Positions 32,007 to 59,864 are shown, counted from the stretch's first letter. The stretch is 64,000 bases of DNA from Dehalococcoidia bacterium (GCA_003142375.1 PLME01000005.1:114582-178581), one strand, 5' to 3'. Notes: generated by a model from the letters alone, not told the origin. Numbers and translations are program-made.

Positions 32007-32040
32007 CTCCGCCAGGGCTTGGCAGGCTTCGCTGACGGAG
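32007..32040. repeat. inverted repeat CTCCGCCAG-N16-CTGACGGAG, copy 2, immediately 5' of the 32062 start codon
   Basis: Same element with one arm mismatch. Followed by GGGGAGAAGAACC-ATG (RBS plus start of the beta-helix gene). Confidence 0.55.
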
Positions 32041-32061
32041 TTTAGCACGGGGAGAAGAACC

Positions 32062-33300
32062 ATGCTACGTTTACATGGAATTATCCGGCGTCAGACCGCT
32101 GCACGCAAACAGCTGCACGTTATTAATAAGTCCCTGCTATTCTGTTTTCTTTTAATGGCTTGCTTGAGTACTATTTGCAGTGTAGCATTGCCACCCGTCG
32201 CTCTTGCATCTAATATAGATGGCAAATTTTATTTGCCTGAAAATCTATTCTCAGATACCGCAACATATTTCATAGCAGCCTCAGATGCTACAGCAACAGA
32301 AAAGGCACAGGCTGATGTTGTATGTGATGGAAAGGCAGACCAGGTTGAAATTAATGCAGCTATTATAGCAGGACACAATCATATCGTACTATCAAGTGGT
32401 ACTTTTGCAATTGGTGCACAGATTGTTTTGGCAAGTAACATATGGCTTCAAGGGCAAGGTGCTGGAACTATTATAAAAATTGGTGGCGATTATTCTGGCA
32501 TAAAAGTCATAGGTTGTACATACTTTACTCTATCTGATTTTGAAGTAGATGGAGATAATAAAAACACGGGTCTTGGAAGTCATTCTATTTATATCCGTAC
32601 GGGATGTTCTCATTTCACAGTTAGAGATTTACGAGTAGTAAACTCCCATTCCTTTTCACTTATGTTTGACGATGATTGTAGTTATGGCGTAGTTGATAAT
32701 ATTTATTGTTTAAGTTCCAATGAAGCATATCACGATGGAGTACATCTTAATGGTTGTAGCAATATGACAGTAAGTAATATTTATGGTTCAACTGGTGATG
32801 ACTTATTGTGTATTGGGTCCAAAACAGTAGCCACCTCTCATATAACAGCAACAAATATTTCAGGAGTTTCTGGTATGGCGCATCTATGCAGAATATATAT
32901 TGCAGAGCATGCTTCTGCAGGGGCGGCTGTATCAGATATTACTGTTAGCAACATATCCGGCACTGCTAAGAGATTATTGATTATTAACAGCGACACCAAC
33001 GGAACTATCAGTAGAGTTTCTGTTAATAATATTAGTGGGGTTGGAACTGCTAATGGAATCCGTGCTGATACGACCGCTGGCGGGACTATTTCCGACATTA
33101 ATATTGATGGTTTTAGTGTTAGTGGCTCCAGTACCTATGGAGTATTTATTAATGGCGTAACCAGGGGGGCATTGACAAATGGCTCAATTCTAAATTGCTC
33201 TGACCATTCTCTACTTCTAAGAGCCAATACAGCCTTCAAATGCGATAACATCAATATTAAAACAGAGGTTGCAAGCCGGTCAGGTGTGGCGGTAGATTGA
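32062..33300 (+). CDS. secreted right-handed parallel beta-helix protein (pectate-lyase superfamily)
   Basis: Signal anchor. Repeated beta-helix rungs (IVLSSGTFAIGAQIVL, IYIRTGCSHFTVRDLRV, VSNIYGSTGDD, VSNISGTA..., VNNISGVG...) typical of the pectate_lyase_3 / tailspike-like fold. Confidence 0.6.
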   Translation: MLRLHGIIRRQTAARKQLHVINKSLLFCFLLMACLSTICSVALPPVALASNIDGKFYLPENLFSDTATYFIAASDATATEKAQADVVCDGKADQVEINAAIIAGHNHIVLSSGTFAIGAQIVLASNIWLQGQGAGTIIKIGGDYSGIKVIGCTYFTLSDFEVDGDNKNTGLGSHSIYIRTGCSHFTVRDLRVVNSHSFSLMFDDDCSYGVVDNIYCLSSNEAYHDGVHLNGCSNMTVSNIYGSTGDDLLCIGSKTVATSHITATNISGVSGMAHLCRIYIAEHASAGAAVSDITVSNISGTAKRLLIINSDTNGTISRVSVNNISGVGTANGIRADTTAGGTISDINIDGFSVSGSSTYGVFINGVTRGALTNGSILNCSDHSLLLRANTAFKCDNINIKTEVASRSGVAVD

Positions 33301-33331
33301 CCCCACCCCCGTAATTTAATCAATAATAACT

Positions 33332-35083: not shown

Positions 35084-35213
35084 GTACTATACTATGACCT
35101 GGTTATCATTATGAGGAACATAGGCAAAAACCAAAGTTTCATATCAGCTATCTTACCACCATCTCGTAAATATTCTCTACCTTTTTTGCCATGTTTTCCC
35201 GTGAATACTTGAG

Positions 35214-36740
35214 CTAATGTTCTGGATTAAAAATGCTCTTCCCATCGAATAGAAAGTCGCCGTGTACGTTAAGCAGGTCAAGTACGGTTGGGGCGATGTC
35301 CATTAATGTTATATTAAATTGGGAGAAATTTTCTGAACCCGGATAGGATATTAGAAATACCGGGGAATCTGAGCGGTGCGATCCCGGATGTATTTCATGC
35401 GTTCCGGATTTTCCCATGATTGGGCAGTGTATGGACCATCCTATTCCATATCCCTCCTGCAACTCAAAAACAATGTCAGGGTACCGATTAATGAACTCGC
35501 CCTGATACAGCTCTTCGCGTCGGCAGATCCACTTCATTATATTGATACCAGAAGTTGGCTCCCTAATTATGGAAAGCCTGTCAATAATTGCGCTCCGCAG
35601 CTCTTCGTAGCTATTCCTCTTTTTGGCATCACCGCTTATTTCAATGCCCCCGTACGAGTAAGCTTTTATGCCGGAAAGGTCGGAAACACAGGCTATAGTC
35701 TTATCCCAGTCAACCCCTGATGGTGCGGCATAGATTTTCCTGGCCCAGGGGAATAACCTAAGTAATCGGGCAGCTATTACCTCAACACCATGCACAGAGA
35801 TAAGACGGTCAGCCGCTCTTTTGGCCATCTCAGTGAATCTACTTAAATTGCTCTGATGGTTTTGTCCGCCTTTAGATACCAGATATCCTTCTTTCCTAAG
35901 GATCTCATTAATGTTGACAAGGTTGACAGGGCGCATACCGTGTCCGTGGTCACTGAAAATAATTACCGTTGATCCAGAATTAACGGCGGACAGAAGCTCT
36001 CCTATCTTTTTGTCATAAAGGACGTAAAAGTCTTTTATCACATCTTTAAAAGGAGTACCTGCCACATGTGTGGGATCTTTATCATCATGGTGGGACCAGA
36101 AGCAGTGTTGAATAGAATCAAGAACCGAGGAGTACATAAAGAACAGGTCCCAGTCATCCTTTCTCAGCATCTCAATCCCAAATGAGAATTCGTTAGAGAG
36201 AAGATTCTTGCATTTAGCAATAATCTTATATAGTGCGGATGCTTTTAGCGATGAAATCTCTTGGATCATGTTCAATCCGCTTAAGTCCTTATCTTTGCCA
36301 ATTTGCGATGGGTATGCCGCCGGTGCACAATTTGCGCCGAGGTGGCGCATGGATCTGGATACCATCACTCCGTTGACAGGCCAGGGGGGGTAGACTGCCA
36401 GAGGAAAAAGTACACATACTTTCTTTTGATGCTGGCTGAGGTAATCCCAGAAACAAGTGCCCTGGAGTCTTCCCCGAATGGAATTTTCCGAATCATCAAG
36501 GGCTGTGACAAAGCTCTTATTATCCAGCGGACTTCTAAAATATACAATGCCTGTAGACGCAGGGCTTTTTCCTGTATAAATGGATGCCCATGCCACGGGT
36601 GAATCAGGTGGGAAAACTGATTGCATGTGTATTTTAGGTGCATTTTTCATAAGTTCTCTTAGATTCGGGAGTTCGCTTTCGAACTTTGACAGAAGGATGG
36701 AATCAAGGGCGTCAATGCCAATCATTACGACTTTGTTCAC
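35214..36740 (-). CDS. alkaline-phosphatase-superfamily protein (type I phosphodiesterase / nucleotide pyrophosphatase-like)
   Basis: N-terminus VVMIGIDALD (metal-binding Asp pair) and later HG.. / DHGHGM segments fit the AlkP-core fold. GTG start abuts the upstream stop. Confidence 0.5.
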   Translation of the reverse strand: MNKVVMIGIDALDSILLSKFESELPNLRELMKNAPKIHMQSVFPPDSPVAWASIYTGKSPASTGIVYFRSPLDNKSFVTALDDSENSIRGRLQGTCFWDYLSQHQKKVCVLFPLAVYPPWPVNGVMVSRSMRHLGANCAPAAYPSQIGKDKDLSGLNMIQEISSLKASALYKIIAKCKNLLSNEFSFGIEMLRKDDWDLFFMYSSVLDSIQHCFWSHHDDKDPTHVAGTPFKDVIKDFYVLYDKKIGELLSAVNSGSTVIIFSDHGHGMRPVNLVNINEILRKEGYLVSKGGQNHQSNLSRFTEMAKRAADRLISVHGVEVIAARLLRLFPWARKIYAAPSGVDWDKTIACVSDLSGIKAYSYGGIEISGDAKKRNSYEELRSAIIDRLSIIREPTSGINIMKWICRREELYQGEFINRYPDIVFELQEGYGIGWSIHCPIMGKSGTHEIHPGSHRSDSPVFLISYPGSENFSQFNITLMDIAPTVLDLLNVHGDFLFDGKSIFNPEH

Positions 36741-45638: not shown

Positions 45639-47000
45639 CTATTGCCAAACGCCCCTGTTGAGGTCCAGCGTGACATTATTGTCTGGCGGCGGCAGGTCTT
45701 TCCATAGGCTGTCAACCAGGTCCTTCCTGAGCTCGACGCCTATCCATGCCATCGGGCTCAGTCCGTTTTCCTGTATGGCCGGCTGTCCGGCTGGCAGTTT
45801 TTCGTCCCCGGCCATATGGGCTACAACAGCGCGGGCCACCTGTGCGGCCAGCTTCTGCGCCTCGGCGCCGTCCACACCGTATGAAGCAATCATACTCGCG
45901 GCTGTCGCCGCCACGCCATTCTCCAGCTGTGCCTCGGCATATCCTTGTAAATCGCTCGGGTGGGATGCTATAGATTGTATGTGCGCCGTGCGTATGGCGG
46001 CTTTTTGTGCCCCGTCGATATTTATCACCCGGTAGGGGCAGGGAAAGGTGATTAGCGAGCCGGTTTCCACATCGAAGAGGAATTTACTTGTATCCGGCCA
46101 GGCTCTCTCCGTGATGTCCTGCGCATGGAAGTGCCCGGTGAATACCAGGCGTACATTATATGCGGCCAATAATCTGGATACCGCCTGATAATTTTCTATT
46201 ACGTATTCCGGGAAGTTCCTGGCCTGCCCATCGAAATGCTCGGTCACCGGATGATGCTCCATGGCGATCACAGCTTTGCCGGCCCTGGCCGCCTTGGCCA
46301 GCACCTCCTCTATCCATCCCAGCGTCTGCGGGCTGAACCTGCCTGCCGTGACCGTTTCCTCTTCCCCTACCTTGCCTTGGTAACGGCATGAGTCCAGGGC
46401 CAGCAGCCAGAGCCCTTCCTGGGGCTCGGCCACGTAGCTGAGCGAGGCAGAGTCCCGGTAAAGGGCATCTTTATACCCGAAGTCACCGTAAATCTGCGCA
46501 AATTCTTCAGCCGTGATATTGCGGATGCGCAGCGCAATATCGCCCGCATATCTGACGGCATTGGCGTTGTCGATATCATGGTTGCCGGGTACGACGTAAA
46601 CCTTTTTACCGCTTGCTTGCAACTGCTCCAAATACTGCACAACAAGCTCGTGGGAGGAGCGGTCGCCATGATCGGTCAGATCGCCGGGCACTAGTACGAA
46701 GCTGACATTTTCACTATTTATCTGCCCGACTGCCGTCTGCAATATCTCGGCGCTTTCTTTGATCAGCTTATAGTCCCCCGCAACGTAATTCTCAAAGGCC
46801 TTGCCGTCCGTGCCAAGATCAGGATTGTAGGTATGCAGATCAGTCATTACTGCGAAATTTACCTGGGGATAGGCAGGAGGCTTATCCAGAAGTGCCTTTA
46901 GGGTGGGATCCGTCTCATGACTTAACGGCTGCTGCGCGATGCAGCCAATATCAACCAGCATCAGAAGGACAATAAGGGCCAGGTAAACTATTCTCGTCAT
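45639..47000 (-). CDS. secreted calcineurin-like metallophosphoesterase
   Basis: Signal peptide (lipobox-like DIGC). Motifs [19 protein letters not shown]. Confidence 0.7.
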
Positions 47001-47251
47001 TTACACAGGGTGATACGTATTTATTATGCTAAAAGTAAGAATTTAAATATTATAAGGCCTGGCAGGTTGGAAGTCATATATTAACCAAGTTGACATTTGT
47101 GATAAAATTATGAGAGTATTAAGTAATTTGATGGTCGTATTGACAAATGATGTGGTCGGAATCTGTAGGAATATTGCCGATATGACCGCCTTCTATATTG
47201 ACATTCAGATTGTAGCGTTTGTTCCTCATACTTCCCCGTACAGGAGGCATC

Positions 47252-50200
47252 ATGCGGATTAAATTCCCGGCTATTATAAGAGTGATCGCCAGTATGCTGG
47301 CGGTTGCCGCATTTATCATCCCTGCTCACATGGCTTTACCTGCAGATGTATCCGCTGACCCGGGCATCATGAGGTGGGATACGGTCATTACCCCGGGGTA
47401 TATGGAGAATAAGTGGGATATCGACAATCTGCATGGCGTAGGCGCCAACACCGGCCAGGGAAGCGAGATCCTCGACATAGCTGCCGGCAAAGACGGCAAA
47501 ACTGTGGTCGCTATCGTCAGGATGTGGTTTCCGCAGACCGATGGTCAGGTAGCTTCCCCTTCCCCGACCGGATTATATAAAAACATTATACTTATATCTA
47601 CTAATGGTGGCATAACCTTTTCAGACTCTCAATATCGATTTCAATTCCCCACTCCTGCAACAGCTCCCAATTTCTTCCAGGTTGAGATTGCCTCTGATAA
47701 TCCCAGGGTTGTGGTGCTGACCTCCTCGACCTACGGAGGAACTGGCGGCCCCAAAATGGTCTGGGAAACAGGTTGGGTGAGAGGCGATAGTCCCTGGACC
47801 ACCATCTTTAATGGCACCGGCCTGGAAGCTAGTGAAACCATCAGATGTGTGGATGTCTCCGCCGATTACGGAGGCTTTCGCGATATAGCTTTTGGTACCG
47901 TCAACGGCACCAGCGGCGGACGCTGGGCCACCATATCGACCAGGCCATTTGGCTCCATCCAGGTTCAGCTCAATGCCAATGGCACACCGGCCGTCGCCTT
48001 CGGCAGCCCCCCATTGCCCACTACCTCCGGCATCGACTACCACGCCGTTAAATTTTCACCAACTTACAATGGCGATGGTTCCGTGGCTCTGGTTTATGCC
48101 GATACCAGTGCTACCTACTATAATGTGGCTTTTCGTGACCTCAACCAGAACACCACTTTGAGCTATGCTTTCGGCTCGACCGGCATTGAGGTTAAGGACC
48201 CTGCTTCCGCCCCGGGCAGCTCGCCGAGCTGGTCGCAGCTGAACAAGACGGATTTGGAACTCCCCTCCGACTTCTCGGGCCAGTCCTCCTCGTTGCGCAG
48301 GGCCTATATAAGTCTGGATGCAAGCGGCAGCAAGAGCCCTACTTCACAGGATGGAATTTACAGGATCGACGATTCGACAACTTATGTTTTGATGGATACA
48401 TCTGCGACACCCGATAAGGCCATATACAACATCGCCTATTATGGCACTTACGCCTCGGGCAAGCTGCTGGCCGGCGAGCGCATGGGCCAGCCATGTACCG
48501 CTACCGTCCCCACCTGGTTCACGGATTCCCCGACTACCTGTCCCATCCCCTGCTGGTACCCTGCCCTCAAGTCCACCACCGGCGCCGGCAACCAGGGAAC
48601 ATGCAGCACCGGCTCCAAGAACGGCGTCGGCGCGGCCGTAGTCCACTGGAATGGTGACGGCTCGCTGGGCCTGGTAGCCACCGGCTCACTTCCCGATAAT
48701 GTAGTCCCAGGCCTTACCGGTTTCACCACCGGCAAAGGAATTGAGATACCCGGCACTCCGTATGTTGTAGTAGGGGGGAAAGGCAATTGGTGGGAGCTTC
48801 AGTTAACAGACCCCAAGGATAATGATGAATCGGCCTTCGCCATCTCCCGCAATAACGGCGAGACCTGGAACCAGTTGGCCATAATCGATACCACCATCGA
48901 CTGGTTTAACGATGTGGCCGTCGCCCCAGATTGCTCCACCATTTACCTGGCCTCCGCCAATGAGAACGTAGGCATAGGCTGCAACGAGTTCGATAGCGTA
49001 TGGCGCGCCACCCTTAATCCCAACGTCGCAGCGCCTCTTCCCGTGATCCCGCCGCTGGGCACCTACTGGGAGCGCGTATTGGCCCGTACGACTTCAGGCA
49101 ACTGCCTCGTCCCGCAGTCTGAACTTCCTATCCTGCGCGTGGTAGAATCCTGCACCGACAAGAAAGACGGTGAGATCGTAGGCTGGGCCGCACAGAACGC
49201 CAAAGCCACAGCCGCAGCCAATTCCGGCGGCGTGATGGCCTGGTCGCCCGACTTCGGCGACTACTGGGCCACCGTCACCCCCAGGTATCCCGTGCAGGAC
49301 TTCGTTTTTGAAACCAGCACCACGATGTACGTAGTCAGCGCAGACGGCGTTGTCCAGAGGCTGCCCTACACCGGCACCTCCTGGTCCACCAACCTGCCCA
49401 ACTATGACACCGAGCTGCTCTTCGCTCACACCATCGCAGCCGTTCCTGATGGTAAGGTCCTGGTCGGCGGCGCCAAACATTCACCTTATCCCGGCGCATA
49501 CTCGCTTGACAAGGCCGTCACCCTCAACGTAATGGCCGATCCTATACCCAACCATGGCAACGAACACATGATCTTTGACGTCGACTTCGCCAACAACCAG
49601 TTCTTCTACATGGCCGATGATGCTGCTGCAGCAACCGGCCTGGGCACCGTCTACCGCAACACCGTACCGTCACTCGGCAGGTGGGTAGACAACGACATGA
49701 TGAGCGCTGCCAACGGCAACGGCTATGTCTTCGCCCTTGAACCGCAACTCTGGTGGTCGGCAACCGGCATCAATAATCCTCCTCACATCATCGGCCAGTA
49801 CGGTATCGTGCAGGCATTCACGGGCGATCCTCAGCCTGCTCTTTACGTGGCCCATGACAACCTGACCCTTTACAACAGCAACGGTTATGCAGACAGCGCA
49901 GTTTGCCGCACACTCAGACCTCGCGATGGCATGCCCAAACCGGGCATCGCATGGGCTTGTCTCGATGTGTTCGCACCGCTGACTCAGAAAGGCGTGCTGT
50001 TCACACTCGAGCCGACCTCGCTCAAAGCCTGCGGCTGCTGCTCCCTTGACACCAACACCACCCTTTACGCCATCGACAACGAGTCAGGTGGACGCTGGAA
50101 TGGGCACTGGAGTTTTGATGGCGTCAATTACTTTGATCCTAACGTCTACGGCAAACTGGGCTATACTCCGATAGTTAACCAGGGCATGCTCTGGGCATAC

Positions 50201-51052
50201 ACCGACTGCCTGGCCAAGAAAGGCCCGGCACTCAAGAGCCCGGCTGACCAGTTCTTAGTCGGCGCTGACCCGGTCACCGGCCGCAACTCACAGATCGACC
50301 TCTCATGGGAACAGCTCTGTCTGACAGTCTGGTATCAACTCCAGATAGCCAAAGATAAGGACTTTACCCTGAGGGTCAACCCCTCGGTCAACTGGGGCAA
50401 CGGCTCCACCGGCGTCATCTCCTCAGTGACAGGCTCGTTGCTGATGAAGATGGACTCCACCAACAACACCAGCCCGGCTGCCTGGATTCCTCCTGGATCA
50501 TTGCCTGAAGCAGGCGCGATCTACTACTGGAGGATTCGCTCGGCTAAATCCGCTACCAGCCAGATTGCCAACAGCCCGTGGTCCGAGGTTCGCAGCTTCA
50601 CCGTCAAAGCAGGCTTCCAGACCATTAGCCCCTACTATGGCGTACAGCTGCTCAGCCCGGCCAACAGCGGCATCGGCATAGCGACCAAACCGACCCAGTT
50701 CTCCTGGAGCCCCTGGCAAAATGCCACCAAGTACGAGTTCGACCTGGCTAAGGATTCCGAGTTCAAGCAGATGGTTACCACCGCCAATACCACTACCACA
50801 GCTTACCAATACCCGAATGCCCTGGACTACAATGCCGTCTATTTCTGGCGTGTAAAGGCCCTCGAGGTCAACGGCCAGAACATCCCGAGTGATTGGTCGG
50901 CCACCTTCAGCTTTACGACAGAAAAGGTCCCGGTCATACCTCCGCCCCCCACCGAGCCTGCTATTCCCCTTTGGGTCTGGGTCGTTATGGCGCTGGGTAG
51001 CATTCTCGCCGTCGCCGCTCTCTTCTTGATCATGAGAACCAGACGCATTTAA
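47252..51052 (+). CDS. giant BNR/Asp-box-repeat cell-surface protein with C-terminal TM anchor
   Basis: Track ORF from TTG 47219. ATG at 47252 has AGGAGG 6 nt upstream. Signal peptide. Several S-x-[DN]-x-G-x-T-[WF] Asp-box-like repeats (STNGGITFS, SRNNGETWNQ). C-terminal Fn3-like modules (YYWRIRS, YFWRVKA). Terminal PPPPTEP-TM-RTRRI. Confidence 0.7.
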   Translation: MRIKFPAIIRVIASMLAVAAFIIPAHMALPADVSADPGIMRWDTVITPGYMENKWDIDNLHGVGANTGQGSEILDIAAGKDGKTVVAIVRMWFPQTDGQVASPSPTGLYKNIILISTNGGITFSDSQYRFQFPTPATAPNFFQVEIASDNPRVVVLTSSTYGGTGGPKMVWETGWVRGDSPWTTIFNGTGLEASETIRCVDVSADYGGFRDIAFGTVNGTSGGRWATISTRPFGSIQVQLNANGTPAVAFGSPPLPTTSGIDYHAVKFSPTYNGDGSVALVYADTSATYYNVAFRDLNQNTTLSYAFGSTGIEVKDPASAPGSSPSWSQLNKTDLELPSDFSGQSSSLRRAYISLDASGSKSPTSQDGIYRIDDSTTYVLMDTSATPDKAIYNIAYYGTYASGKLLAGERMGQPCTATVPTWFTDSPTTCPIPCWYPALKSTTGAGNQGTCSTGSKNGVGAAVVHWNGDGSLGLVATGSLPDNVVPGLTGFTTGKGIEIPGTPYVVVGGKGNWWELQLTDPKDNDESAFAISRNNGETWNQLAIIDTTIDWFNDVAVAPDCSTIYLASANENVGIGCNEFDSVWRATLNPNVAAPLPVIPPLGTYWERVLARTTSGNCLVPQSELPILRVVESCTDKKDGEIVGWAAQNAKATAAANSGGVMAWSPDFGDYWATVTPRYPVQDFVFETSTTMYVVSADGVVQRLPYTGTSWSTNLPNYDTELLFAHTIAAVPDGKVLVGGAKHSPYPGAYSLDKAVTLNVMADPIPNHGNEHMIFDVDFANNQFFYMADDAAAATGLGTVYRNTVPSLGRWVDNDMMSAANGNGYVFALEPQLWWSATGINNPPHIIGQYGIVQAFTGDPQPALYVAHDNLTLYNSNGYADSAVCRTLRPRDGMPKPGIAWACLDVFAPLTQKGVLFTLEPTSLKACGCCSLDTNTTLYAIDNESGGRWNGHWSFDGVNYFDPNVYGKLGYTPIVNQGMLWAYTDCLAKKGPALKSPADQFLVGADPVTGRNSQIDLSWEQLCLTVWYQLQIAKDKDFTLRVNPSVNWGNGSTGVISSVTGSLLMKMDSTNNTSPAAWIPPGSLPEAGAIYYWRIRSAKSATSQIANSPWSEVRSFTVKAGFQTISPYYGVQLLSPANSGIGIATKPTQFSWSPWQNATKYEFDLAKDSEFKQMVTTANTTTTAYQYPNALDYNAVYFWRVKALEVNGQNIPSDWSATFSFTTEKVPVIPPPPTEPAIPLWVWVVMALGSILAVAALFLIMRTRRI

Positions 51053-51353
51053 TTTGTTTTGGATTAGGTTTTGTTTTAGGTTTGTTTTGAAACCGGTTCG
51101 TTATTGATTCTTTTTTAAATAGGCTTTGTATTGGGCTTATTTTAAAAACCGATTCGTTTTTGATTCGTTTTTGATTCGTTTTAAATAGGCGTCGTAGCTG
51201 ATTTGTGCTGAAATAGATTTGTTTTAGGTTTGTTTTGAAACTGGTTCGTTTTTGATTCGTTTTAAATAGGCGTCGTAGCTGATTTATGCTGAAATAGATT
51301 TGTTTTAGGTTTGTTTTTTAGATACAAGTCATAGCTGATTTGTTTCTCGAAAT
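51053..51353. repeat. degenerate tandem repeats (about 3.5 units of 65-98 bp) in the 3' UTR of the giant protein gene
   Basis: The unit GATTTGTTTTAGGTTTGTTTTGAAACTGGTTCGTTTTTGATTCGTTTTAAATAGGCGTCGTAGCTGATTTGTGCTGAAATA recurs head-to-tail. It contains internal GATTCGTTTTT x3 sub-repeats. AT-rich and non-coding. Confidence 0.6.
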
Positions 51354-51388
51354 AAAAAAGGGGCGGGCCTCAGGCCCGCCCCTTTCTA
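51354..51388. terminator. bidirectional rho-independent terminator
   Basis: AAAAAA-GGGGCGGGCC-tca-GGCCCGCCCC-TTTCT. A perfect 10-bp GC stem. There is a T-tract on the plus strand and a longer one (TTTTTTATTT) when read on the minus strand. Confidence 0.6.
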
Positions 51389-51612
51389 TATGTCCTGGTT
51401 ATAGTGAATTACCGTCATTTATACTATAGATCGAATGGAAGCGCCGTAGTCTTCCAATCTATAATTGAGAATATGTAGAAATCATGGCGGCAATGCGGCG
51501 ACAGGGATGTTACGGGAGGTCAAGTTAACTCTTGGTTGGGAACAATACTTATACAGGCTATTAAGTCATGGTAAAATGGCTGTATTTCGCATTGTTGATA
51601 CAGACAAGTATG

Positions 51613-51846
51613 CTAATGATACGCTTCGTCATATTGTTTCTTAGCTTTAGCAAGTTCAACTTGGGCATCAAACCATTCTTTGGCTAGTCTATCTGTTTCC
51701 TGTGTTTCAATGGTATCTATCGGTTGTACTGGTGACCCAATATATCGTCTAGCCTCCATCTCTTCATATTTCTTGATTATCACCTCCCATCTTCTATAGC
51801 ACTCGTAGAAATTATTAGTTGCATATTCTTTTGATAACTTCTCCAT
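51613..51846 (-). CDS. hypothetical small protein (77 aa, charged/helical)
   Basis: Track ORF in the AT-rich segment at the island edge. No family recognised. Confidence 0.3.
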   Translation of the reverse strand: MEKLSKEYATNNFYECYRRWEVIIKKYEEMEARRYIGSPVQPIDTIETQETDRLAKEWFDAQVELAKAKKQYDEAYH

Positions 51847-52119
51847 TATGCCCGAAGACCTCCCAAACGATGATTTTAATAATTATACCAGCCTAGTCAA
51901 TCGTTTTAATGAAGCATACGTGTGTCGAAGGAATGGATCAATGATATCAATTAATAGAAAGCACAGGTGCGCAGAGAGTGAAAAGCCAAAGATCAGCAGC
52001 TAACATTACCTTGGAAAAACACACTGTGAAACAGCCAGCAGGCACGATGACGCTGTTTAATTTATACTTTTGGAGCATAAATATTATCCTTTAGGGCCTT
52101 CAATACCCCGAGAATTAAT

Positions 52120-52317
52120 GTGATACTGAATGAAATGGTAGGAGGTCTTTATATGGAGATAGAACACGCCGTGCACGTGAGCGAGTTACAAGCCATATTA
52201 GCTTGCGATCAGAGTGATGGATATCTTAAGAAATTGGCTAAAGACCGGCTTGAGTCAATTGAGCAGCAAGCCCAATCAGTAGCTAACCTAAAAAAGGTCC
52301 CTGCTCTGATAGCCTGA
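52120..52317 (+). CDS. hypothetical small protein (65 aa)
   Basis: Track ORF, AT-rich. No family recognised. Confidence 0.25.
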   Translation: MILNEMVGGLYMEIEHAVHVSELQAILACDQSDGYLKKLAKDRLESIEQQAQSVANLKKVPALIA

Positions 52318-52505
52318 CTTATTTCATTTCGGTTAGAGGCCCGCAGCAGATATGCATAATTCTGCAGCCTGCCTATTTTATTTACCAAATATTACAACAA
52401 ATAGCTGTTATATTGCCCATGATACCACCCGACCAGGCAAAAGCTTATATCAGGCTCTTAGAGGGCGTTTTGCACTATCCTAGCACTATCCTTAGATATT
52501 GAAGA

Positions 52506-52525
52506 CGCTGAGCTACAGGCGCATG
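52506..52525 (-). repeat. tRNA-Arg 5' fragment (20-bp exact direct repeat of 22021..22040); candidate att core
   Basis: CGCTGAGCTACAGGCGCATG is identical at both sites. It equals 3 nt of 5' flank plus nucleotides 1-17 of the tRNA-Arg gene. The flanking bases differ on both sides. Confidence 0.7.
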
Positions 52526-52557
52526 CAAACAAAACTGGTCGGGGAGAGGGAAAAAGG

Positions 52558-52635
52558 TGGGGTGAGTGGAGGGATTCGAACCCTCGATATCCAGGGCCAC
52601 AACCTGGCGCCTTAGGCCTCTGGGCCACACTCACC
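52558..52635 (-). tRNA. tRNA-His (anticodon GTG) with encoded G-1 and 3' CCA
   Basis: Minus-strand sequence G-GTGAGTG...CCAGG-TTGTGGC-CCTGG...GGGTTCGAATCCCTC-CACTCAC-C-CCA. The extra 5' G pairs with discriminator C73, a hallmark of tRNA-His. Anticodon loop TTGTGGC. Confidence 0.8.
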
Positions 52636-52728
52636 ATCCGATTACGGGTTGAAATTATACCACAGTTCCGCTCCCGTCCCTTACTACCGGCCCCTTATGC
52701 CTCTCCCTTATTTGCGATGAAAGATGGC

Positions 52729-53955
52729 CTACCTCACCAGCATATTGCCGCCCACGATAGAGAGGGCGTCGTTTGTCCCATCTTCTATAAGCCCTGCTCG
52801 GGCGTCACGGAATAATTTCTCTATGGGGAGCTCCTTGCTCAAGCCCAGCCCGCCGAAAATCTGCACGGCCTCGGTTGCTACCTTGTAAGCGGCGTTAGTG
52901 CAATAAACCTTGGTTGCGATGCCATGCTGCGGGGAAGGCGGGAATGTCTTGGTGTTATATACCATCACGCTACGGGAAAAAGCGCGGCAGGTCTCAACCG
53001 TGGAAAACATATCAAAGAGCCTGGCCTGAATCCAGGCGTGCTCACACAGCCTCCTGCCGCCCTGGACCCTGTCTTTGGTATATTGCACGGCCAGGTCGTA
53101 ACAGGCCTGCGCCAGGCCCGTGAAGAAGGCGCCCATGCCCATATTAGCGTGTGCCAGTGTAAACTCGCCGATAAGCTCATAGGCCGTCTGGTCCATGATC
53201 ATCTGGTCACCCGGACATACAACGTTATCGAAGAATATCTCGCCCTGCGGCAGCTCCCGCTGTCCCAGCTTGTCCAGTGGTTTGCCGCGGCTTACGCCCG
53301 GCTGATTGAGGTCAAGCATGCAGCTTCCTCCACCCGCCATGCCCATCTCCGGGACAAGGTTGACCGAGAGCATGATATTGGTGGCGACCGGCCCGTTGGA
53401 GACCCAGGCAGCTTTCTGGCCGTTGATTATCCAGTCCGAACCTTTTTTCACCGCTTTACACTGCTGCGTGATATTTTTATTATGATAAATATCGGTGCCC
53501 ATCATCAGGTTATCGGACCCGTGGTCGGGCTCGGTAGCTCCCCAGCAGCTCATTATGCTGGCGTCTTTGCAGTTAACGAAAGGGGTGTAAAACTTATCCA
53601 TTAATTTGGGGTTGCCCACCGTCTGGGCAACCGTGGCGCAGAAAAAGCTGACGCCAAGGGCGACGGCAAAGCCCACGCTTCCGTAGGCCAGCTCCTCCCA
53701 AAGGATATGAAGGGCCACCGGGTCCTGTGCCAGGCTGCCGGGATGTCCCAGCAGTGTGGCCGTATGATATCCGTTCTCATACATTTTGGCCATCGTCTGC
53801 CAGTAGAGGGAGCCCTTCTCAACTACCTTGTCGGGCGGCATCTTATCCAGCGCTAAAGCGGCCGGGCGCAGGATCTCAACTGCGAACTTATGCGCTTCAG
53901 CCTTAAGCTGGCGTTGCTGCTCAGTAAGGTTCACGTCTAAATCAAGATATGCCAT
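52729..53955 (-). CDS. acyl-CoA dehydrogenase family protein
   Basis: 408 aa with ACAD N-terminal helical, middle beta-barrel and C-terminal helical domains (GATEPDHGSD-like segment; C-terminal ...QIFGGLG...). Confidence 0.75.
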   Translation of the reverse strand: MAYLDLDVNLTEQQRQLKAEAHKFAVEILRPAALALDKMPPDKVVEKGSLYWQTMAKMYENGYHTATLLGHPGSLAQDPVALHILWEELAYGSVGFAVALGVSFFCATVAQTVGNPKLMDKFYTPFVNCKDASIMSCWGATEPDHGSDNLMMGTDIYHNKNITQQCKAVKKGSDWIINGQKAAWVSNGPVATNIMLSVNLVPEMGMAGGGSCMLDLNQPGVSRGKPLDKLGQRELPQGEIFFDNVVCPGDQMIMDQTAYELIGEFTLAHANMGMGAFFTGLAQACYDLAVQYTKDRVQGGRRLCEHAWIQARLFDMFSTVETCRAFSRSVMVYNTKTFPPSPQHGIATKVYCTNAAYKVATEAVQIFGGLGLSKELPIEKLFRDARAGLIEDGTNDALSIVGGNMLVR

Positions 53956-53976
53956 TTCAAGCTCCTTCAGTAGAAA

Positions 53977-54801
53977 TTATTTATTTACAGGGTATGGCAG
54001 CGGCAGAGTCTTCCATTGCGCAACAGGCTCACCTTTGTTCAGGCGTGAACGAAATGAGTCGGTTGTCTGAATGACGAATGGCTGAGTGTTATCCAGCCCC
54101 AGGTCCCTGAGGTTATCGGTCATCCTGTGTTTGGCCGGGCCTACCTTTATCTCGGCAGGCTTGTTCAAGTATGTTTTATATTTGACATCAACGTTCACCA
54201 CGGTTTTCAGAATCCAATCGTTCAAATTGGAATAAGTGACCAGGTCGAACCCGCGCGCCTTCATACTCCTTCCCTTTGAAAGGTCAGCTTTGACTGACAC
54301 TATAGGTTCCCCGGTAGCCGGGTCCAGGGCCCCGAACTCGAAGCCGGTTTCGCTGAATTTAAATGGGAGACTGGTGACGAACTTGGGATAGCCCCATATT
54401 TCGCGGCCTCCGGCACGCGCAATATCGGTAGTTACGGGAAGCTCCAGCACATAAGCGCTGATGCCTCCGCTTATCAGGGGAATGCCGAAAATCGTCATCA
54501 GACGCCACGTCTTATTTTTGGAGGATTGCGGCTGTGCCGTGATAGCCAGTCCCAGCTCCTCATAGGATGAAACACTGGTCCGGCGGTAATTGTAGAAGAC
54601 CAAGCTCACGATGGTTTTACCGTTTGAGAACCTGATAGGCTCCAACCCTGTACCCTCCAGCTTGGGCAGGGCCTTTTCATAATCCACCCAAAAATTTAGC
54701 TGTCGTACAGAGACGTCGAAGTATAGGATGGGCAATTCAAGTTCGCCTTGCGAGGTATTGGCGATCGTTTTGGGGACATCGAAGAAATCTTTACCGGCCA
54801 T
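53977..54801 (-). CDS. acetoacetate decarboxylase (ADC) family protein (paralog of 20929..21738)
   Basis: LELPVTTDIARAGGREIWGYPKFV aligns with the ADC ...GRE..YPK core, as in the paralog. Confidence 0.6.
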   Translation of the reverse strand: MAGKDFFDVPKTIANTSQGELELPILYFDVSVRQLNFWVDYEKALPKLEGTGLEPIRFSNGKTIVSLVFYNYRRTSVSSYEELGLAITAQPQSSKNKTWRLMTIFGIPLISGGISAYVLELPVTTDIARAGGREIWGYPKFVTSLPFKFSETGFEFGALDPATGEPIVSVKADLSKGRSMKARGFDLVTYSNLNDWILKTVVNVDVKYKTYLNKPAEIKVGPAKHRMTDNLRDLGLDNTQPFVIQTTDSFRSRLNKGEPVAQWKTLPLPYPVNK

Positions 54802-54903
54802 GGCCTCTTCCTCCCATAATTGCGAATATTTTTCAACAGTTTATCAGGCAAAACGGTTTAAGGAAAGAGTGTGTATTGACTGGAGGGTTTACCAGTCTGC
54901 CCT

Positions 54904-57900
54904 TCAATGCAGCCTTCTTTGATAGAGTATGACCTGTACCGAGAGGCCGAATAGGATAACCAGGATTAAGGCTATTAATAATCCGTTGGTCGAGTTGTCG
55001 TCCGTCTGAATTAGCCTGGATGGAAGAGCCGGGCCGCCGGCCGTTGTGAAGGAGAAGACCGGGCTGGGTTCCCCGGGCAGAGGTTCCAGCGGTGTTACCT
55101 GCCAGAAATAAGCTGTCCTGTAGCTCAGTCCCCAGTTCAGGTTATAAGCTGTCCCTTTGACTTTTTCATCGATAATGGGTTTATCCAGGCCCGGGTCTGC
55201 AGCCAAAACAAAGCGGTAGGTCGTGGTATTTTGCATAGGGGTCCATGAAAAGCTGGTGGGGTAAACAGGTGCATCACGGGCCCCAGCTTCGGGCTTCAGA
55301 GGCTGAAGGCCGGGATAGTCTGTTGATCTCACCGGATAGCCCGGACGTACGTTGAAACTCACGCCGTAAGACCAGCGGCTGCGTATGACCTGTCCGGTGA
55401 CGGCGCGCCTGACGCGTATATGCCAGTAGTAGCTGCTACCTGCTTCGGGAAGTGCACCGTCAGGTATGTAATATGACGGGTAAAGCAAATCATCCGGCAT
55501 GTAAAAAGGACTGGTGGAGGGCGTGGCCGTATCTACCACCAGATCGAACCAGCTATCCTTGCCGATCTCGACCTCATAGGCGTCCGCCAGCGATAATTGT
55601 TCCCATTTAAGGTCGACCTGCCCGTTGCGGCCTGTAACGGGATCGCAATACACAAAACTGCCCGGCTTGGGCGCGATAAGCCAGGGAGAATGGTTGGCCA
55701 ACGTATCGTTGAAAGCCCAGAGCCGGCCTACTCCATTATAAGGGTCATAATCGTGGGAATCGATAGCCCATATGGTCTCGTCGGCGCATACCAGCGCATC
55801 AGGCTCCATCTCGAAAAGGACGCCTGCGGGTAAGCCGGTTGCCAGGGAGTCCCAGGATACGTTGTTGTTGGGGATGGCAGTACGGGAGTAAAGCGTCCTG
55901 TCGACCCCTGCTCTGGCCGGATTATAGGCGGCATAGAGAGTGCCCCGGCCCGCAACACACAAGCCATAGTAGCTGTTATCAGGTGGACTCATATCGTCCC
56001 ACCGCTCGTTAATATCGATAGCCCAGCGGTAAAGGCCTCCGGCATCGTCGGCAAGGTAAATAAAATTGTTGTTTGTGAACTGATCGTCGAAGGCGACATG
56101 CTTGTTGCCATAGCTGTAAGCGGGTTCGCTAATCTGTATCCAGTTGTCTCCGCCATCCAGGGAATAGGCGGCCGGGCATTGCTGACCAACGCTCGCGCCA
56201 ACCAGAACCTTGTTTTGCTGCGCTTCTATCGTGTGAGCAGAATTGAGGCCGGTGTCGGTGGGAAAGTCCCAGCGCCAGCCTTTAGTACTGTATTTTCCAT
56301 GCCGGACCAGCCCGTTCGATTTTAGTACAAACAATACATCGCCGCCAGGTGCGGCCATATCCTGCAATGCGATATCCGGGTGGCAGTCCTGCCATGTCTG
56401 CCCACTATCACGAGACTGTAGCAGGTTAGTCGTTAGCTGGGCGCCTAGAAAAACTACTGCTCCCTTCCGATCGTCGGGTGGCAGCTTGAGCAGGGGCAGC
56501 GGGCAGTCAGTACACAATATTCTCTGCCAGGAGTCCCCTATGGGGTCCGTGCGACTGCGCCAGATGCTGTCCAGGCCGCTGCCATTCACCGAAGAAATAT
56601 ATGCGGTTTTACCGTCCGCGGCTACTGCCAGTGCCTTGAAGCGGTTTATTATGGTATCTATAAGGCCAAGCTGGTTCCACGACGTACCGTCGTCTTTGCT
56701 CTCAGAAAAGGCCGATTCATCCAACGGTGAGGCATTCCAGGATGAATCGTTGGGGTTTGACCATTTAAGCGGCGTATCCCGGTTGCCCGACCCCGTGCCG
56801 CAAATTGCAGCCGAACCATCCTTTGTCCAGGCTACCCTGATATTGGCAAAGCCGGTGCCATATCCTCCTGTGGGAGCTTTCAAGGGTCTGACCCAGGTTG
56901 AGCATAGCCCGAACGGATCAGAGGTGAAAAAGATATCGGACATTGCGGTTAGCGGATCAGCAAGCACGCCTCCGGCCAGCAATTTACCGGACAGTGTGCT
57001 TCCGCTATATGCAATTGAGCTCAACCTCGGCTTGCTTCCATTACCCGGCGCCCGGAGTCGGGTTACTATGGTGTCGTTGAGACGGTAAACATCGTCCAGG
57101 GGTTGGGAAGTCCCCATGGATGTACCGTTAGAATCGTAAGCTGCGAAGATGATACGCCTGGGCGGGACGTTGCCGTCGAAGTCGGAGGGCAGGGATATAC
57201 AGCCGGTAATGATCTTGCTTTCGCCGCTGCCGTTGCCCCCGGACTGATCGGTAGTACATAGTTCGACAGGCCATCCTATATCCCGATTCCAAACGCTGGT
57301 GCTGGCTGCGAAATCGCGGTAGCCGAGATTTATATAAGTCCGCTGTAGGGTGCTGGACATGATTACCAGTGTGGAATCGGCAGTATAAGAGGGCGAGGCC
57401 ATCAGCGAGATGACATCGCCGCCCGTATATCCCTGCGCCTTCCACCCTCCCATAGCCGGATAACTGAGTATATATATTTCACCCTGGGCCAGCCCATCAG
57501 ACGGATTGCGGCTGCCGACGATAATATCGTGTACATTGTTTCCGCGGCACGTATATAGTGCCGATATGATGATACTGCCGATTTGCTCTCCCGGGCTGTA
57601 AAGCCAGGGGATATGGCCGCTATAAAACCAATTTACTCCTCCATCTGAGGAGATATAGACCTCCCTGCGGTGCGTGCCGCCGCTGTCCATGCAGACGGCA
57701 GCTATGAAGTCGGGGTCATCCGGGGAGACTGCGATGAGGGCCACGGGAAAAACCGGAGGGGGTGACGCCTGCGCCAGCCACAGGTTAGGCTTCATGCTCC
57801 AGGATACTCCACCATCGGGGCTTCTCCATATCCCTGCTTTGACAATTAATCCGGCATCGGCATCAGGTATATCGATGGCATACACCGTTTTACCGTCGTT

Positions 57901-58131
57901 AGCAACTGCCAAATCGCTGATCTCACAGGGAGTTATGACATCGTTGCGCTGTGGATAGCTGCCAGGTGTATCGATAGTGCCCCATTTCAGAACACAGGTC
58001 GAAGGGGTATCGGCAGAAACCGGAGAGATAACAAAGGATGGAGAAATAACCGTTATAGCCGTAAACAGGCTAACAGCACACAACAGGGTTTTGCATATTA
58101 TCTTTGCTGGCTGATAACTGGTTCTATCCAA
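54904..58131 (-). CDS. giant BNR/Asp-box-repeat cell-surface protein with C-terminal TM anchor (paralog of 47252..51052)
   Basis: TTG start with GAGGGA RBS. Signal peptide. Asp-boxes SPDGGVSWS, SSDGGVNWF, SKDDGTSWNQ, RDSGQTWQD, SLDGGDNWIQ. C-terminal YYWHIRV / YFWQVTP modules. Terminal TM plus RRLH. Confidence 0.7.
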   Translation of the reverse strand: MDRTSYQPAKIICKTLLCAVSLFTAITVISPSFVISPVSADTPSTCVLKWGTIDTPGSYPQRNDVITPCEISDLAVANDGKTVYAIDIPDADAGLIVKAGIWRSPDGGVSWSMKPNLWLAQASPPPVFPVALIAVSPDDPDFIAAVCMDSGGTHRREVYISSDGGVNWFYSGHIPWLYSPGEQIGSIIISALYTCRGNNVHDIIVGSRNPSDGLAQGEIYILSYPAMGGWKAQGYTGGDVISLMASPSYTADSTLVIMSSTLQRTYINLGYRDFAASTSVWNRDIGWPVELCTTDQSGGNGSGESKIITGCISLPSDFDGNVPPRRIIFAAYDSNGTSMGTSQPLDDVYRLNDTIVTRLRAPGNGSKPRLSSIAYSGSTLSGKLLAGGVLADPLTAMSDIFFTSDPFGLCSTWVRPLKAPTGGYGTGFANIRVAWTKDGSAAICGTGSGNRDTPLKWSNPNDSSWNASPLDESAFSESKDDGTSWNQLGLIDTIINRFKALAVAADGKTAYISSVNGSGLDSIWRSRTDPIGDSWQRILCTDCPLPLLKLPPDDRKGAVVFLGAQLTTNLLQSRDSGQTWQDCHPDIALQDMAAPGGDVLFVLKSNGLVRHGKYSTKGWRWDFPTDTGLNSAHTIEAQQNKVLVGASVGQQCPAAYSLDGGDNWIQISEPAYSYGNKHVAFDDQFTNNNFIYLADDAGGLYRWAIDINERWDDMSPPDNSYYGLCVAGRGTLYAAYNPARAGVDRTLYSRTAIPNNNVSWDSLATGLPAGVLFEMEPDALVCADETIWAIDSHDYDPYNGVGRLWAFNDTLANHSPWLIAPKPGSFVYCDPVTGRNGQVDLKWEQLSLADAYEVEIGKDSWFDLVVDTATPSTSPFYMPDDLLYPSYYIPDGALPEAGSSYYWHIRVRRAVTGQVIRSRWSYGVSFNVRPGYPVRSTDYPGLQPLKPEAGARDAPVYPTSFSWTPMQNTTTYRFVLAADPGLDKPIIDEKVKGTAYNLNWGLSYRTAYFWQVTPLEPLPGEPSPVFSFTTAGGPALPSRLIQTDDNSTNGLLIALILVILFGLSVQVILYQRRLH

Positions 58132-59678
58132 GCCGCACTTCCCTCAGGCAGAGGACCACCGGATTCCACGCGTAAGATAACTAGAACTTTTTGGCCTGCC
58201 AGCCCGGACAGATCAACCGTGTAAGTCGCAAGCTGGCCGCCCGAATTTACGGTCAGGGGGGGGAAGTAGTTTATTACACCTCCCTGTGAGGTGCCAAGTA
58301 TAAATTTGACGCTTGCCGCTGCCGGCGCGTCCACCGTCAGCCCCACATTGGCGCTGAATTTACATCCATGGGGGACTGTGAACGGACGCAGTTCTGCCGG
58401 GCTGCCCATAGGCACCCCGAATGCACCCTGTATCCAACTGCCGGTGGAATTTGGGGGTGTCATCAAAAGCGCACTCGGGTAGCTGAGACTGCTTTTTATC
58501 TGGGCTGTGGATATCTGTGCCCACCCTTCCGCGCCGCTGGCATACATGGGCCAGCTAAGCGAACCAGCGCTGCTCTGCCATTGAGCGTTACCCGAATATT
58601 GCACGAGGTTAATATTCATGAGTGGCCCGAAATTGTGTTCATAGCAGTTATTGGTGTAATCGGCCTCGGGACAGGAACCGTCACCGTTAGCGCATATCCG
58701 GATGTTGGTAGCCCCGCTGGTTGCCGAATTGGAGGATGAACCCAGCAAGGACGGGAAACGAGGCGAGAAGTGATACGTCAGGAACGCCTTGGCTTTCTCA
58801 TCGCCGGGTGCAAGCGGCTCGACATAGCTCTTGGATTCCAGTGTGTCGTCTCTGTAAAGGTATGTCTCCGTGGCGCATGATGTCAGATTGCCTATGTTCT
58901 TAATGCGGTAGGAAAGGACATTGCCGCTGCTCCAGAAATCGATTACAACCAGGTCTGCTTTATTATTGACAGGCTGTTTTACTGCGATCGAAATCTGATT
59001 GGAGGCGCTTCCTCGCTTGTTGACCGCCCAAAGAGTATAGGTTGTATCTGCTGTCGGGGCTATATCTATGCTGCCTTCGGGATCAACTGTTCCCGGCAAA
59101 GGTTCTATGCTTATCCGACCGGTCTCCGCCACACTCCAGCTCAATTTAGATGTCTCACCGGAAACTATTTGTTGTGGCACAGCGGAGAAATGGTTGATAT
59201 AGGGGAGTGAACCTGACGAGTCTCTCTTTATGAAGAAAGGAATTGATGTTTGTTGTCCGCCTACTATTGAGAGATCGAGCCGGTATTGGCCGCTGCTGAA
59301 TCCCTGTGCGGGGGCGTTAAGCTTGAATCCCAAGTAACCATCCTGGCCTTGTGTCTTATTATCAGTGTAGATGATCCTATTTAGTTCCTCCTGCGATTCA
59401 CTTTTTTCATAAACCCAGTTGGCCTGAACGGCAGTATCTGCATGGGCGCCGGACAGCCTGATTGAGCAGCAGACCTGCGGGCTGTCGATATAGAAGAAAT
59501 CGGTACTGTCCTTTGGACGGTAGTCCGCCTCAAGGCCGGTAGCTATCACAGGGTCGTTCAAGCGGGGGCCGAAAAACGGCAAGTTTGAGCAGGAAGTAAA
59601 AAAAAGCGAAGCCGATATTGCAGCAGAGATCAGGATATTACCGGACTTCAGGTACAAATTCATGGCGCAATGACCCAT
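58098..59678 (-). CDS. lipoprotein with CARDB-like domain
   Basis: Signal peptide with lipobox-like FFTSC. Central ADLVVIDFWSSGNVLSYRIKNIGN resembles CARDB (DLVV...V.N.G). Its 3' end overlaps the start region of the next gene. Confidence 0.5.
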   Translation of the reverse strand: MGHCAMNLYLKSGNILISAAISASLFFTSCSNLPFFGPRLNDPVIATGLEADYRPKDSTDFFYIDSPQVCCSIRLSGAHADTAVQANWVYEKSESQEELNRIIYTDNKTQGQDGYLGFKLNAPAQGFSSGQYRLDLSIVGGQQTSIPFFIKRDSSGSLPYINHFSAVPQQIVSGETSKLSWSVAETGRISIEPLPGTVDPEGSIDIAPTADTTYTLWAVNKRGSASNQISIAVKQPVNNKADLVVIDFWSSGNVLSYRIKNIGNLTSCATETYLYRDDTLESKSYVEPLAPGDEKAKAFLTYHFSPRFPSLLGSSSNSATSGATNIRICANGDGSCPEADYTNNCYEHNFGPLMNINLVQYSGNAQWQSSAGSLSWPMYASGAEGWAQISTAQIKSSLSYPSALLMTPPNSTGSWIQGAFGVPMGSPAELRPFTVPHGCKFSANVGLTVDAPAAASVKFILGTSQGGVINYFPPLTVNSGGQLATYTVDLSGLAGQKVLVILRVESGGPLPEGSAAWIEPVISQQR

Positions 59679-59864
59679 AATAGGTTTTCGATGTATGTGG
59701 TGTCAAGGTTGATAATTGTAAATCGCAATTTACTTTTAGATATGGACCTGCATATAATGAAATTGGTGGAGGGAGTGTTCAGGCTCAGGAGTCCGGGGGA
59801 AATTGATCGAAACGGTCTATCCTGATTTTTCACGTCCATCTTCGGGTGAAATACACTAAACGGC

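Follow-up and report, generated by a model that had tools for sequence, protein, structure and literature searches.

Sediments, aquifers, and peat harbor abundant Dehalococcoidia, a class that includes the key organohalide respirers. Their wall is a surface-layer (S-layer)-like protein coat, whose component is known solely as a "putative" protein from a single genus; in the cultured forms, a proteinaceous wall is found instead of peptidoglycan. The closest described relative of the proteins considered here is DET1407 (Q3Z6N3), a putative S-layer protein of Dehalococcoides mccartyi and one of the cell's most abundant proteins (PMC6646388, PMC5102406). A lattice-modeling preprint lists the β-propeller as the S-layer fold of D. 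mccartyi and gives transmembrane (TM) helices and lipidation as the anchoring modes of archaeal S-layers (bioRxiv 10.1101/2024.05.28.596244). Here, we describe two genes, A (47252-51052, plus strand; 1,266 amino acids [aa]) and B (54904-58131, minus strand; 1,075 aa), which lie on either side of a tRNA-His gene in a 64,000-nucleotide stretch of the genome of a Dehalococcoidia bacterium (GCA_003142375.1 PLME01000005.1:114582-178581; hereafter, the window); the coordinates of both open reading frames (ORFs) include the stop codon. Sequence comparisons place A and B as new, previously unannotated members, belonging to two paralogous subfamilies, of a known but poorly characterized Dehalococcoidia family of β-propeller S-layer-type proteins. 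We accordingly consider it probable that they are anciently diverged paralogs in the cell-surface (S-layer-type) family typified by DET1407 and that they are membrane-anchored envelope proteins.

The relationship to DET1407 had been overlooked in the sequence-only reading of this window. The Dehalococcoides sequence used for the comparison was recovered from metagenome contigs with the back-translated peptide YFGNQWNQ; the resulting DET1407-type ORF (L003:2277-5279, minus strand; 1,001 aa) holds all three of the three published strain 195 DET1407/Q3Z6N3 peptides, and a variant of this Dehalococcoides protein (L006) is 75% identical. In profile-profile comparisons with hhalign, the DET1407-type protein aligns over its full length both with the A-family profile (98.8%, E 1.3e-16, 942 columns) and with the B-family profile (98.6%, E 1.4e-15, 843 columns). 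All five of the Asp-boxes of B fall in register with Asp-boxes of the Dehalococcoides protein, and the best-conserved part is the module comprising the immunoglobulin (Ig)-like region and TM helix, over which A and DET1407 share 33.6% identity (E 3.5e-17). Both Dehalococcoides proteins possess exactly two hydrophobic segments, as do A and B, and DET1407 shares with them the same order of parts and an acidic composition. Its tail, IPAYIW..., resembles the tail IPLWVW... of A, whereas B carries a generic TM helix in place of this conserved tail. The differences are nevertheless considerable: A is about 265 aa longer than DET1407, with insertions, degenerate Asp-boxes, and 12 invariant cysteines against the 5 cysteines in all of the recovered Dehalococcoides protein. 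The genomic contexts also differ from each other, in that the Dehalococcoides gene adjoins rho, unlike the loci of A and B, and the source genome of A and B has at least two paralogs.

The searches for the Dehalococcoides gene in other collections gave a different outcome. In the species-representative genome collection, back-translated YFGNQWNQ returned two unrelated matches and none from Dehalococcoides, and back-translated VAYGTTTGTETTATT returned no match; a synthetic query composed of nine published S-layer peptides likewise had no match in the protein index. Both the genome collection and the protein word index seem to lack the gene or to have it masked, yet it is present in metagenomes.

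A and B are themselves alignable from the signal peptide to the C-terminal region (BLASTP; 29% identity over 1,257 columns, E 1e-106), and this collinear alignment reflects true homology rather than low complexity. The claim that the two are divergent paralogs, which had been put forward from inspection of the sequence, is thus borne out by a pairwise alignment with similarity extending well beyond the low-complexity regions, and the motifs quoted in its support are all present, namely, VSADPGIMRWDTVITPG, VSADTPSTCVLKWGTIDTPG, YYWRIRS, YFWRVKA, YYWHIRV, YFWQVTP, and the endings RTRRI and RRLH. Both proteins are acidic (pI about 4.8-4.9). Each paralog has its own large orthologous family, numbering in the hundreds, with orthologs at 45-86% identity and the listed matches as a whole ranging from 44% to 100%; since each possesses such a family, the split between A and B must long predate the present locus. 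The named homologs all come from metagenome-assembled genomes (MAGs) of Dehalococcoidia or Chloroflexi and are labeled "hypothetical protein," "sialidase family protein," or similar.

The AlphaFold2 models, for which alignments of 65 sequences were used, are confident and all-β for both A (residues 35-1230; pLDDT 84.1, pTM 0.82) and B (pLDDT 82.1, pTM 0.75), with a long C-terminal helix in B at residues 1047-1074. Together with hydropathy analysis, which finds an N-terminal and a C-terminal hydrophobic segment in each protein and no others, they yield the same order of parts in both: a signal peptide, Asp-box propellers, two Ig/Fn3-like domains, a linker, a TM helix, and a basic tail. In these respects the models and hydropathy agree with what had been read from the sequence, i.e., a signal peptide, C-terminal Ig/Fn3-like modules, and a TM helix followed by a basic tail in each protein. 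The signal peptide of A (residues 1-35; 47252-47356) has a basic n-region and a hydrophobic core with predicted cleavage between VSA and D, and that of B (residues 1-40; 58012-58131) has the same VSA-D site. The ectodomain that follows is a β-propeller region in both proteins according to AlphaFold2 and Foldseek, a multipropeller one in A, at approximate bounds of 47357-50221, and one spanning 55702-58011 in B.

The Asp-boxes are distributed unequally. With the strict pattern S-x-D-x-G-x-x-W, B has five canonical copies (residues 104, 161, 478, 573, and 657), consistent with the multiple Asp-boxes originally attributed to both proteins; A retains only one strict copy, at residue 665, and two degenerate ones, at residues 116 and 532, and for A the attribution does not hold. 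The A family is further distinguished by 12 invariant cysteines, including the CGCC at residues 927-930 (50030-50041) and PCTATVPTWFTDSPTTCPIPCW; neither B nor the Dehalococcoides protein has these cysteines. Their conservation suggests that they might form disulfides or bind metal in an extracellular protein of an anaerobe.

The Ig/Fn3-like domains occupy residues ~1015-1118 and ~1140-1223 of A (50294-50920), where YYWRIRS and YFWRVKA lie and the model has β-sandwich strands, and residues ~818-930 and ~940-1032 of B (55036-55680), with YYWHIRV and YFWQVTP. Residues 1139-1224 of A additionally give a weak match to Ig_Rha78A_N. The C-terminal segment of A (50921-51049) comprises a Pro-rich linker, the IPLWVW motif, a TM helix (residues ~1240-1261), and the RTRRI tail; that of B (54907-55035) comprises a linker with a sequon in DDNSTNG, a TM helix (residues 1047-1069), and a QRRLH tail and lacks a P-x-[WYF]-x-W motif. 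A Pro-rich linker had been ascribed to both proteins; it is indeed found in A (VPVIPPPPTEPAIP), but the linker of B (GGPALPSRLIQTDDNSTNG) is not really Pro-rich. The subclade of the B family to which B itself belongs keeps a D-N-[STAI]-T-N-[GA]-L-L motif, which includes an N-x-T sequon, just before the TM helix (54994-55035; residues ~1040-1046), and the other subclade has Y-x-Q-L-L-Q-W-L-Q in its place. As these subclades carry different sequences there, the B family has two distinct prehelix motifs.

Foldseek searches of the Protein Data Bank (PDB) with the model of B retrieved multipropeller ectodomains, with the two-propeller proteins OXG-RCBH (a GH74 enzyme), BT4663, and Aip1 as top matches, along with ROS1 and SorCS2; those with the model of A retrieved Sevenless/ROS1, SorCS2, BT4673, and GH74. 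Among these matches, BT4663 and BT4673 are Bacteroides sensor domains. The best matches of B have two 7-bladed propellers. The E values range from 1e-14 to 1e-11 with TM-scores of 0.2-0.35, and such low TM-scores are to be expected, given that the queries are multidomain proteins. No solved S-layer protein is present among the best 50 Foldseek matches listed for either model.

Building on the directly observed homology, domain architecture, paired hydrophobic segments, and separate genomic histories of A and B, we propose the following model for their deployment. Both proteins would be exported by the Sec pathway, with the signal peptide probably removed after VSA. The acidic ectodomain would then come to lie outside the cytoplasmic membrane, with the Asp-box propellers first and the two Ig/Fn3-like domains after them, while the linker and the single C-terminal TM helix would form a type I tether with the basic tail in the cytoplasm, as predicted by the positive-inside rule. 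In such an arrangement, the propellers might make up a canopy or lattice on the outside, with the Ig domains and linker serving as its stalk. A and B might divide the labor between them, either by coassembling or by furnishing alternative coats. An envelope role of the S-layer type appears to be the best reading because the studied member of the family is an abundant putative S-layer protein and because the cultured Dehalococcoidia are proteinaceous-walled.

Several points weigh against this proposal. The S-layer role of DET1407 is itself putative, being based on abundance, membrane association, and modeling, with no genetics or in situ structure found in the literature. A and B are only ~20% identical to DET1407, and for that reason their function may have diverged. 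With at least two paralogs per genome, the lattice may be formed by only one of them or by none. Moreover, PDB sequence searches with B alone and with the family profiles recovered no relative of solved structure, and for A and B alike, every Pfam and NCBIfam match stays under the curated threshold of its model. The Pfam BNR, Sortilin, and Fn3 models all remain below the gathering score on both proteins (BNR, 14 bits versus a cutoff of 27; BNR_2, 13.8 versus 31.4), and the match to Sortilin-Vps10, a 10-bladed propeller model (24.9 bits versus 33), covers just residues 155-191 of B, which amount to one Asp-box.

A parallel for the proposed tether is offered by the membrane-anchored S-layer proteins of archaea, which likewise have a Sec-exported ectodomain and a C-terminal hydrophobic segment with a basic tail and operate in cells devoid of a peptidoglycan sacculus, the last point being shared with the cultured Dehalococcoidia. 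However, they show no sequence relationship to A and B, their ectodomains are mainly Ig-like rather than propellers, and A and B have no PGF-CTERM/archaeosortase signal.

Although this kind of system has already been described, the gain in annotation is real: hundreds of unannotated "hypothetical" proteins of 1,000-1,400 aa from Dehalococcoidia MAGs can now be placed in the DET1407-type family, and Dehalococcoidia genomes are seen commonly to keep two deeply diverged paralogs with different membrane anchors. Annotators thereby gain a name for these genes, structural biologists gain confident models for tests of lattice formation, and a conserved anchor motif is now defined.

This anchor motif raises the question of how the C terminus is used. 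A P-x-[WYF]-x-W motif borders the helix on its outer side; its P and W do not vary among 50 diverse tails of the A family, which end in [KR]-T-R-R. A 40-residue tail profile, searched against 1.84 billion cluster representatives (E ≤ 0.001), recovered 1,025 of them, always with the match at the extreme C terminus; among the loci compared, it matches A (56 bits), the A-type orthologs, and both Dehalococcoides proteins (38 bits) but not B. Across the superfamily, the ectodomains are only ~20-30% identical, yet the tails are very similar. We considered describing the tail as "exceptionally conserved" but softened this description, as within families chosen by the whole protein its mean pairwise identity does not exceed that of the propellers or Ig domains (A family, tail 52%, propellers 55%, and Ig domains 64%; B family, tail 35%, propellers 60%, and Ig domains 61%).

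One alternative to a simple membrane tether is that the C terminus is a true sorting signal, whereby a dedicated archaeosortase-, exosortase-, or rhombosortase-like enzyme cleaves the tail and attaches the protein to a lipid or an envelope component. The tripartite layout of the tail is that of sorting signals, since the same motif-helix-basic cluster arrangement is found in the LPXTG/sortase, PEP-CTERM/exosortase, PGF-CTERM/archaeosortase, and GlyGly-CTERM/rhombosortase systems, and this alternative would further account for the invariant P and W, for the occurrence of the same extreme C-terminal tail in A, the Dehalococcoides proteins, and all 1,025 representatives, and for its far better preservation than the ectodomains across the superfamily. 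A few carriers even join the Ig-plus-tail module to another ectodomain, which is of the β-helix/NosD type in P0300 and P0347, and some other, short carriers are Ig-like only. Known sorting signals, however, tag many unrelated proteins per genome, whereas here the tail is nearly confined to a single propeller-plus-Ig superfamily: all but seven of the 127 listed matches of ≥100 aa that were checked are homologs from this superfamily or C-terminal fragments thereof. In addition, B and its whole clade lack the tail motif, the A-family tail is conserved no better than the domains preceding it, and the uniformity of the tails is partly circular, given that the representatives were selected by their tails.

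The search for a known signature or a partner enzyme points in the same direction. In line with the earlier observation that the C termini bear no known sorting signature, NCBIfam scans of the isolated tails (E ≤ 10) were empty, no CTERM model matches, and neither A nor B has a C-terminal LPXTG, PEP, or PGF motif. No sortase, exosortase, or archaeosortase was recognized among the scanned genes of the window, and the proteases near the orthologs are not conserved: a signal peptidase is found in L014, a rhomboid in L017, and a CPBP protein in the window about 20 kb from A. On balance, we regard cleavage and attachment by a dedicated sorting enzyme as unlikely. The CPBP protein is an Rce1-like intramembrane protease (26191-26985, minus strand) encoded in the interval between the tRNA-Arg and tRNA-His genes; the window encodes no other membrane protease, and no evidence ties this one to A or B.

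Rather, the tail is read as an ancestral anchor module of the family that the B clade has lost. A more speculative extension, to which we give little weight, is that the tail and the Ig-like domain preceding it form an envelope-sorting or assembly module specific to Dehalococcoidia, whose partner might be either a processing enzyme or lattice-organizing helix-helix contacts, in which case the B clade would have arrived separately at another way of anchoring within the same cell.

A different kind of function is implied if A and B are membrane-tethered extracellular glycoside hydrolases or glycan-binding proteins of the sialidase-like or GH74-like type rather than structural components. Some homologs are annotated at the source as "sialidase family protein" or "exo-alpha-sialidase," Asp-boxes are typical of such enzymes, and residues 475-617 of B give a subthreshold match to the NCBIfam F510_1955 glycosylhydrolase model (E 2e-13; 50 bits versus a cutoff of 175). 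The GH74 xyloglucanases and OXG-RCBH (PDB 2ebs, 1sqj, and 6p2m), which resemble A and B in having two tandem Asp-box β-propellers, are also among the best Foldseek matches (TM-scores of 0.24-0.35), with E values in the range of 1e-14 to 1e-11 given above. The resemblance detected is nevertheless one of fold only: the GH74 enzymes lack both the Ig-domain stalk and the TM anchor, A and B show no detectable sequence homology to PDB sequences, and the PDB sequence profile searches recover no GH74 enzyme or sialidase. Moreover, the FRIP motif [FYW]R[IVL]P is absent, BNR and BNR_2 score far under their thresholds, and, at the low TM-scores obtained, nonenzymes such as Aip1, the sortilin-type receptors, and the sensor domains match equally well. 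The rank of the Dehalococcoides homolog among the most abundant cell proteins suits a structural role. Hence, we consider it very unlikely that A and B are primarily such enzymes or glycan-binding proteins, and we favor the membrane-anchored S-layer-type role.

The present arrangement of the two genes has a separate history from that of the family. The tRNA-His(gtg) gene (52558-52634, minus strand) between them marks a limit of synteny and a hotspot for variable DNA, and with the tRNA-Arg(tcg) gene (21963-22038, minus strand), it bounds an interval; as had been noted, A stands at the inside end of this interval and B outside it, and the coordinates agree. The closest ortholog of A with long flanks (L014; 81% identity) keeps the glycan genes upstream of A, but downstream it has neither B nor a tRNA, and the collinearity with it ends near position 51318 of the window. 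In relatives, B is embedded in a neighborhood of its own, running from SecA via genes for an M20 peptidase, HhH-GPD, DUF4405, and a CARDB protein to B and thence (through ADC and acyl-CoA dehydrogenase genes) to tRNA-His. Beyond the latter gene lies unrelated variable DNA, e.g., restriction-modification genes or an HTH_17 gene; tRNA-His follows the B orthologs of both L018 and L020, each with different DNA beyond it, and the collinearity of the window with L018 ends at 52506, some 50 bp past the 3' end of tRNA-His. The ~1.2 kb between the two breakpoints is unique to the source genome among the relatives compared. In one other relative, just 7 kb separates tRNA-His from tRNA-Arg(tcg), and the intervening genes are different; three other MAGs have both paralogs in separate places (locus tags ABSF74_03080/09440, ACYDHZ_04615/03745, and NT082_05855/05660). 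Only tRNA-His itself was found on searching the window for an att-like repeat of its 3' end, and no integrase was detected among the scanned genes of the interval.

Given these breakpoints, the separate loci elsewhere, and the lack of an integrase or tRNA repeat, the adjacency of A and B is a local juxtaposition in a variable region linked to a tRNA. Rearrangement or insertion at the tRNA-His hotspot, and not duplication in place, accounts for it best, and the 1.2-kb spacer may be the remnant of an element integrated at this tRNA. The sequence-only reading had instead invoked an old inverted duplication across the tRNA-His integration site, which would tie both genes to the history of the island; while A and B do converge on tRNA-His from inside and outside the tRNA-Arg/tRNA-His interval, this scenario is extremely improbable in view of the deep orthologous family of each paralog, the absence of the adjacency from the nearest relatives, the separate loci in other MAGs, the breakpoints at 52506 and ~51318 with a unique spacer between them, and the failure to find a tRNA 3' repeat or an integrase. 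The acetoacetate-decarboxylase (ADC) family genes immediately outside each of the two bounding tRNAs (20929-21738 and 53977-54801, both on the minus strand) were likewise entertained as recent duplicates and rejected, being only 33% identical over 86 aa.

Duplication within the A family is, however, apparent elsewhere. Tandem A-type paralogs in L015/L016 (5480-9502 and 10001-14062) are 69-78% identical at the nucleotide level in their 5' parts and 96% identical over the last 880 nucleotides. This gradient suggests gene conversion or, alternatively, diversifying selection on the exposed end, and a variable 5' part with a conserved 3' part is what would be expected if an exposed tip diversifies while the stalk stays conserved. 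The tandem pair adjoins phage-like genes (portal and capsid) and an IS1595 transposase.

Turning to the signals around the two genes, A starts with ATG, and a database protein that is 100% identical to it (P0001) begins at this codon; an in-frame TTG at 47219, 33 nucleotides upstream, would add 11 residues. A match to the sigma-70 promoter consensus, and a consensus match only, is found about 225 nucleotides 5' of this start (TTTACA-16-TATTAT; 47000-47027, plus strand). The literature mentions a riboswitch upstream of the Dehalococcoides gene; an Rfam scan of the 5' leader of A found no riboswitch and no other RNA. The 3' untranslated region of A contains an 81-bp tandem repeat (51164-51317, plus strand; 1.9 copies, 98% matches), and shorter T-rich repeats are seen at 51056-51182, between the stop codon and a G+C-rich hairpin of 13 bp that is followed by UUUCU (51357-51385, plus strand; -27.7 kcal/mol, z-score -4.28). 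This hairpin is likely the terminator of A. Sequence similar to the 81-bp repeat region, and partly conserved, lies 3' of the A ortholog in L014 (14051-14329), and as it trails the ortholog there, the repeat region travels with gene A. The A+T-rich spacer of ~1.2 kb (51320-52505), which joins the segment of A to that of tRNA-His, has small ORFs only, for example, those at 51613-51846 (minus strand; 77 aa) and 52120-52317 (plus strand; 65 aa).

B has a TTG start and a database protein that is 100% identical to it (P0121); its exact start codon is uncertain, and it overlaps the upstream gene. The latter encodes a 526-aa protein (58098-59678, minus strand) with a CARDB domain (Pfam, E 1.8e-8) and a possible lipoprotein signal, ...LFFTSC; the last 34 nucleotides of this gene are shared with the start of B. 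The two genes form a conserved pair that is also present in L018, L019, and L020. Directly 5' of the pair is the promoter-like site that scores best in the region, again a match to the sigma-70 consensus only (TTGACA-18-TATTAT, 11 of 12 positions; 59677-59706, minus strand). The CARDB protein may be an accessory envelope protein coproduced with B.

The cluster of glycan genes upstream of A contains three GT4/GT1 family genes, one GT2 gene, a UDP-glucose dehydrogenase gene, two epimerase/dehydratase genes, and a metallophosphoesterase gene; only the closest relative (81% identity) retains its linkage to A. The sequence-only reading had put A and B forward as obvious candidate substrates of this machinery, and a role of the cluster in decorating envelope proteins is plausible. 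The number of sequons shows no enrichment in A (13, with 11.1 ± 3.0 expected) and only a mild one in B (12, with 7.0 ± 2.3 expected), and no oligosaccharyltransferase family was recognized among the scanned proteins of the cluster, two polytopic membrane proteins of which have no Pfam, NCBIfam, or PDB match. The core of the cluster (30000-36000) has a G+C content of 0.36-0.40 versus about 0.50-0.55 elsewhere, a pattern that resembles that of horizontally exchanged O-antigen-type loci. Encoded there are a flippase resembling MatE/Polysacc_synt, a GH28-like protein, and a protein of 583 aa that has 11 TM helices, matches no family, and is possibly a polymerase or ligase. One membrane protein, of 645 aa (27201-29138, plus strand), combines nine predicted TM helices with a soluble domain of ~265 aa after them; it matches CBM_4_9 weakly (E 0.0016) and no other entry in Pfam, NCBIfam, or the PDB. 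This protein may be regarded as a candidate GT-C-type glycosyltransferase or oligosaccharyltransferase, and on either side of its gene lies a gene (24416-25258, minus strand; 29244-30140, plus strand) of DUF1616, a mainly archaeal family.

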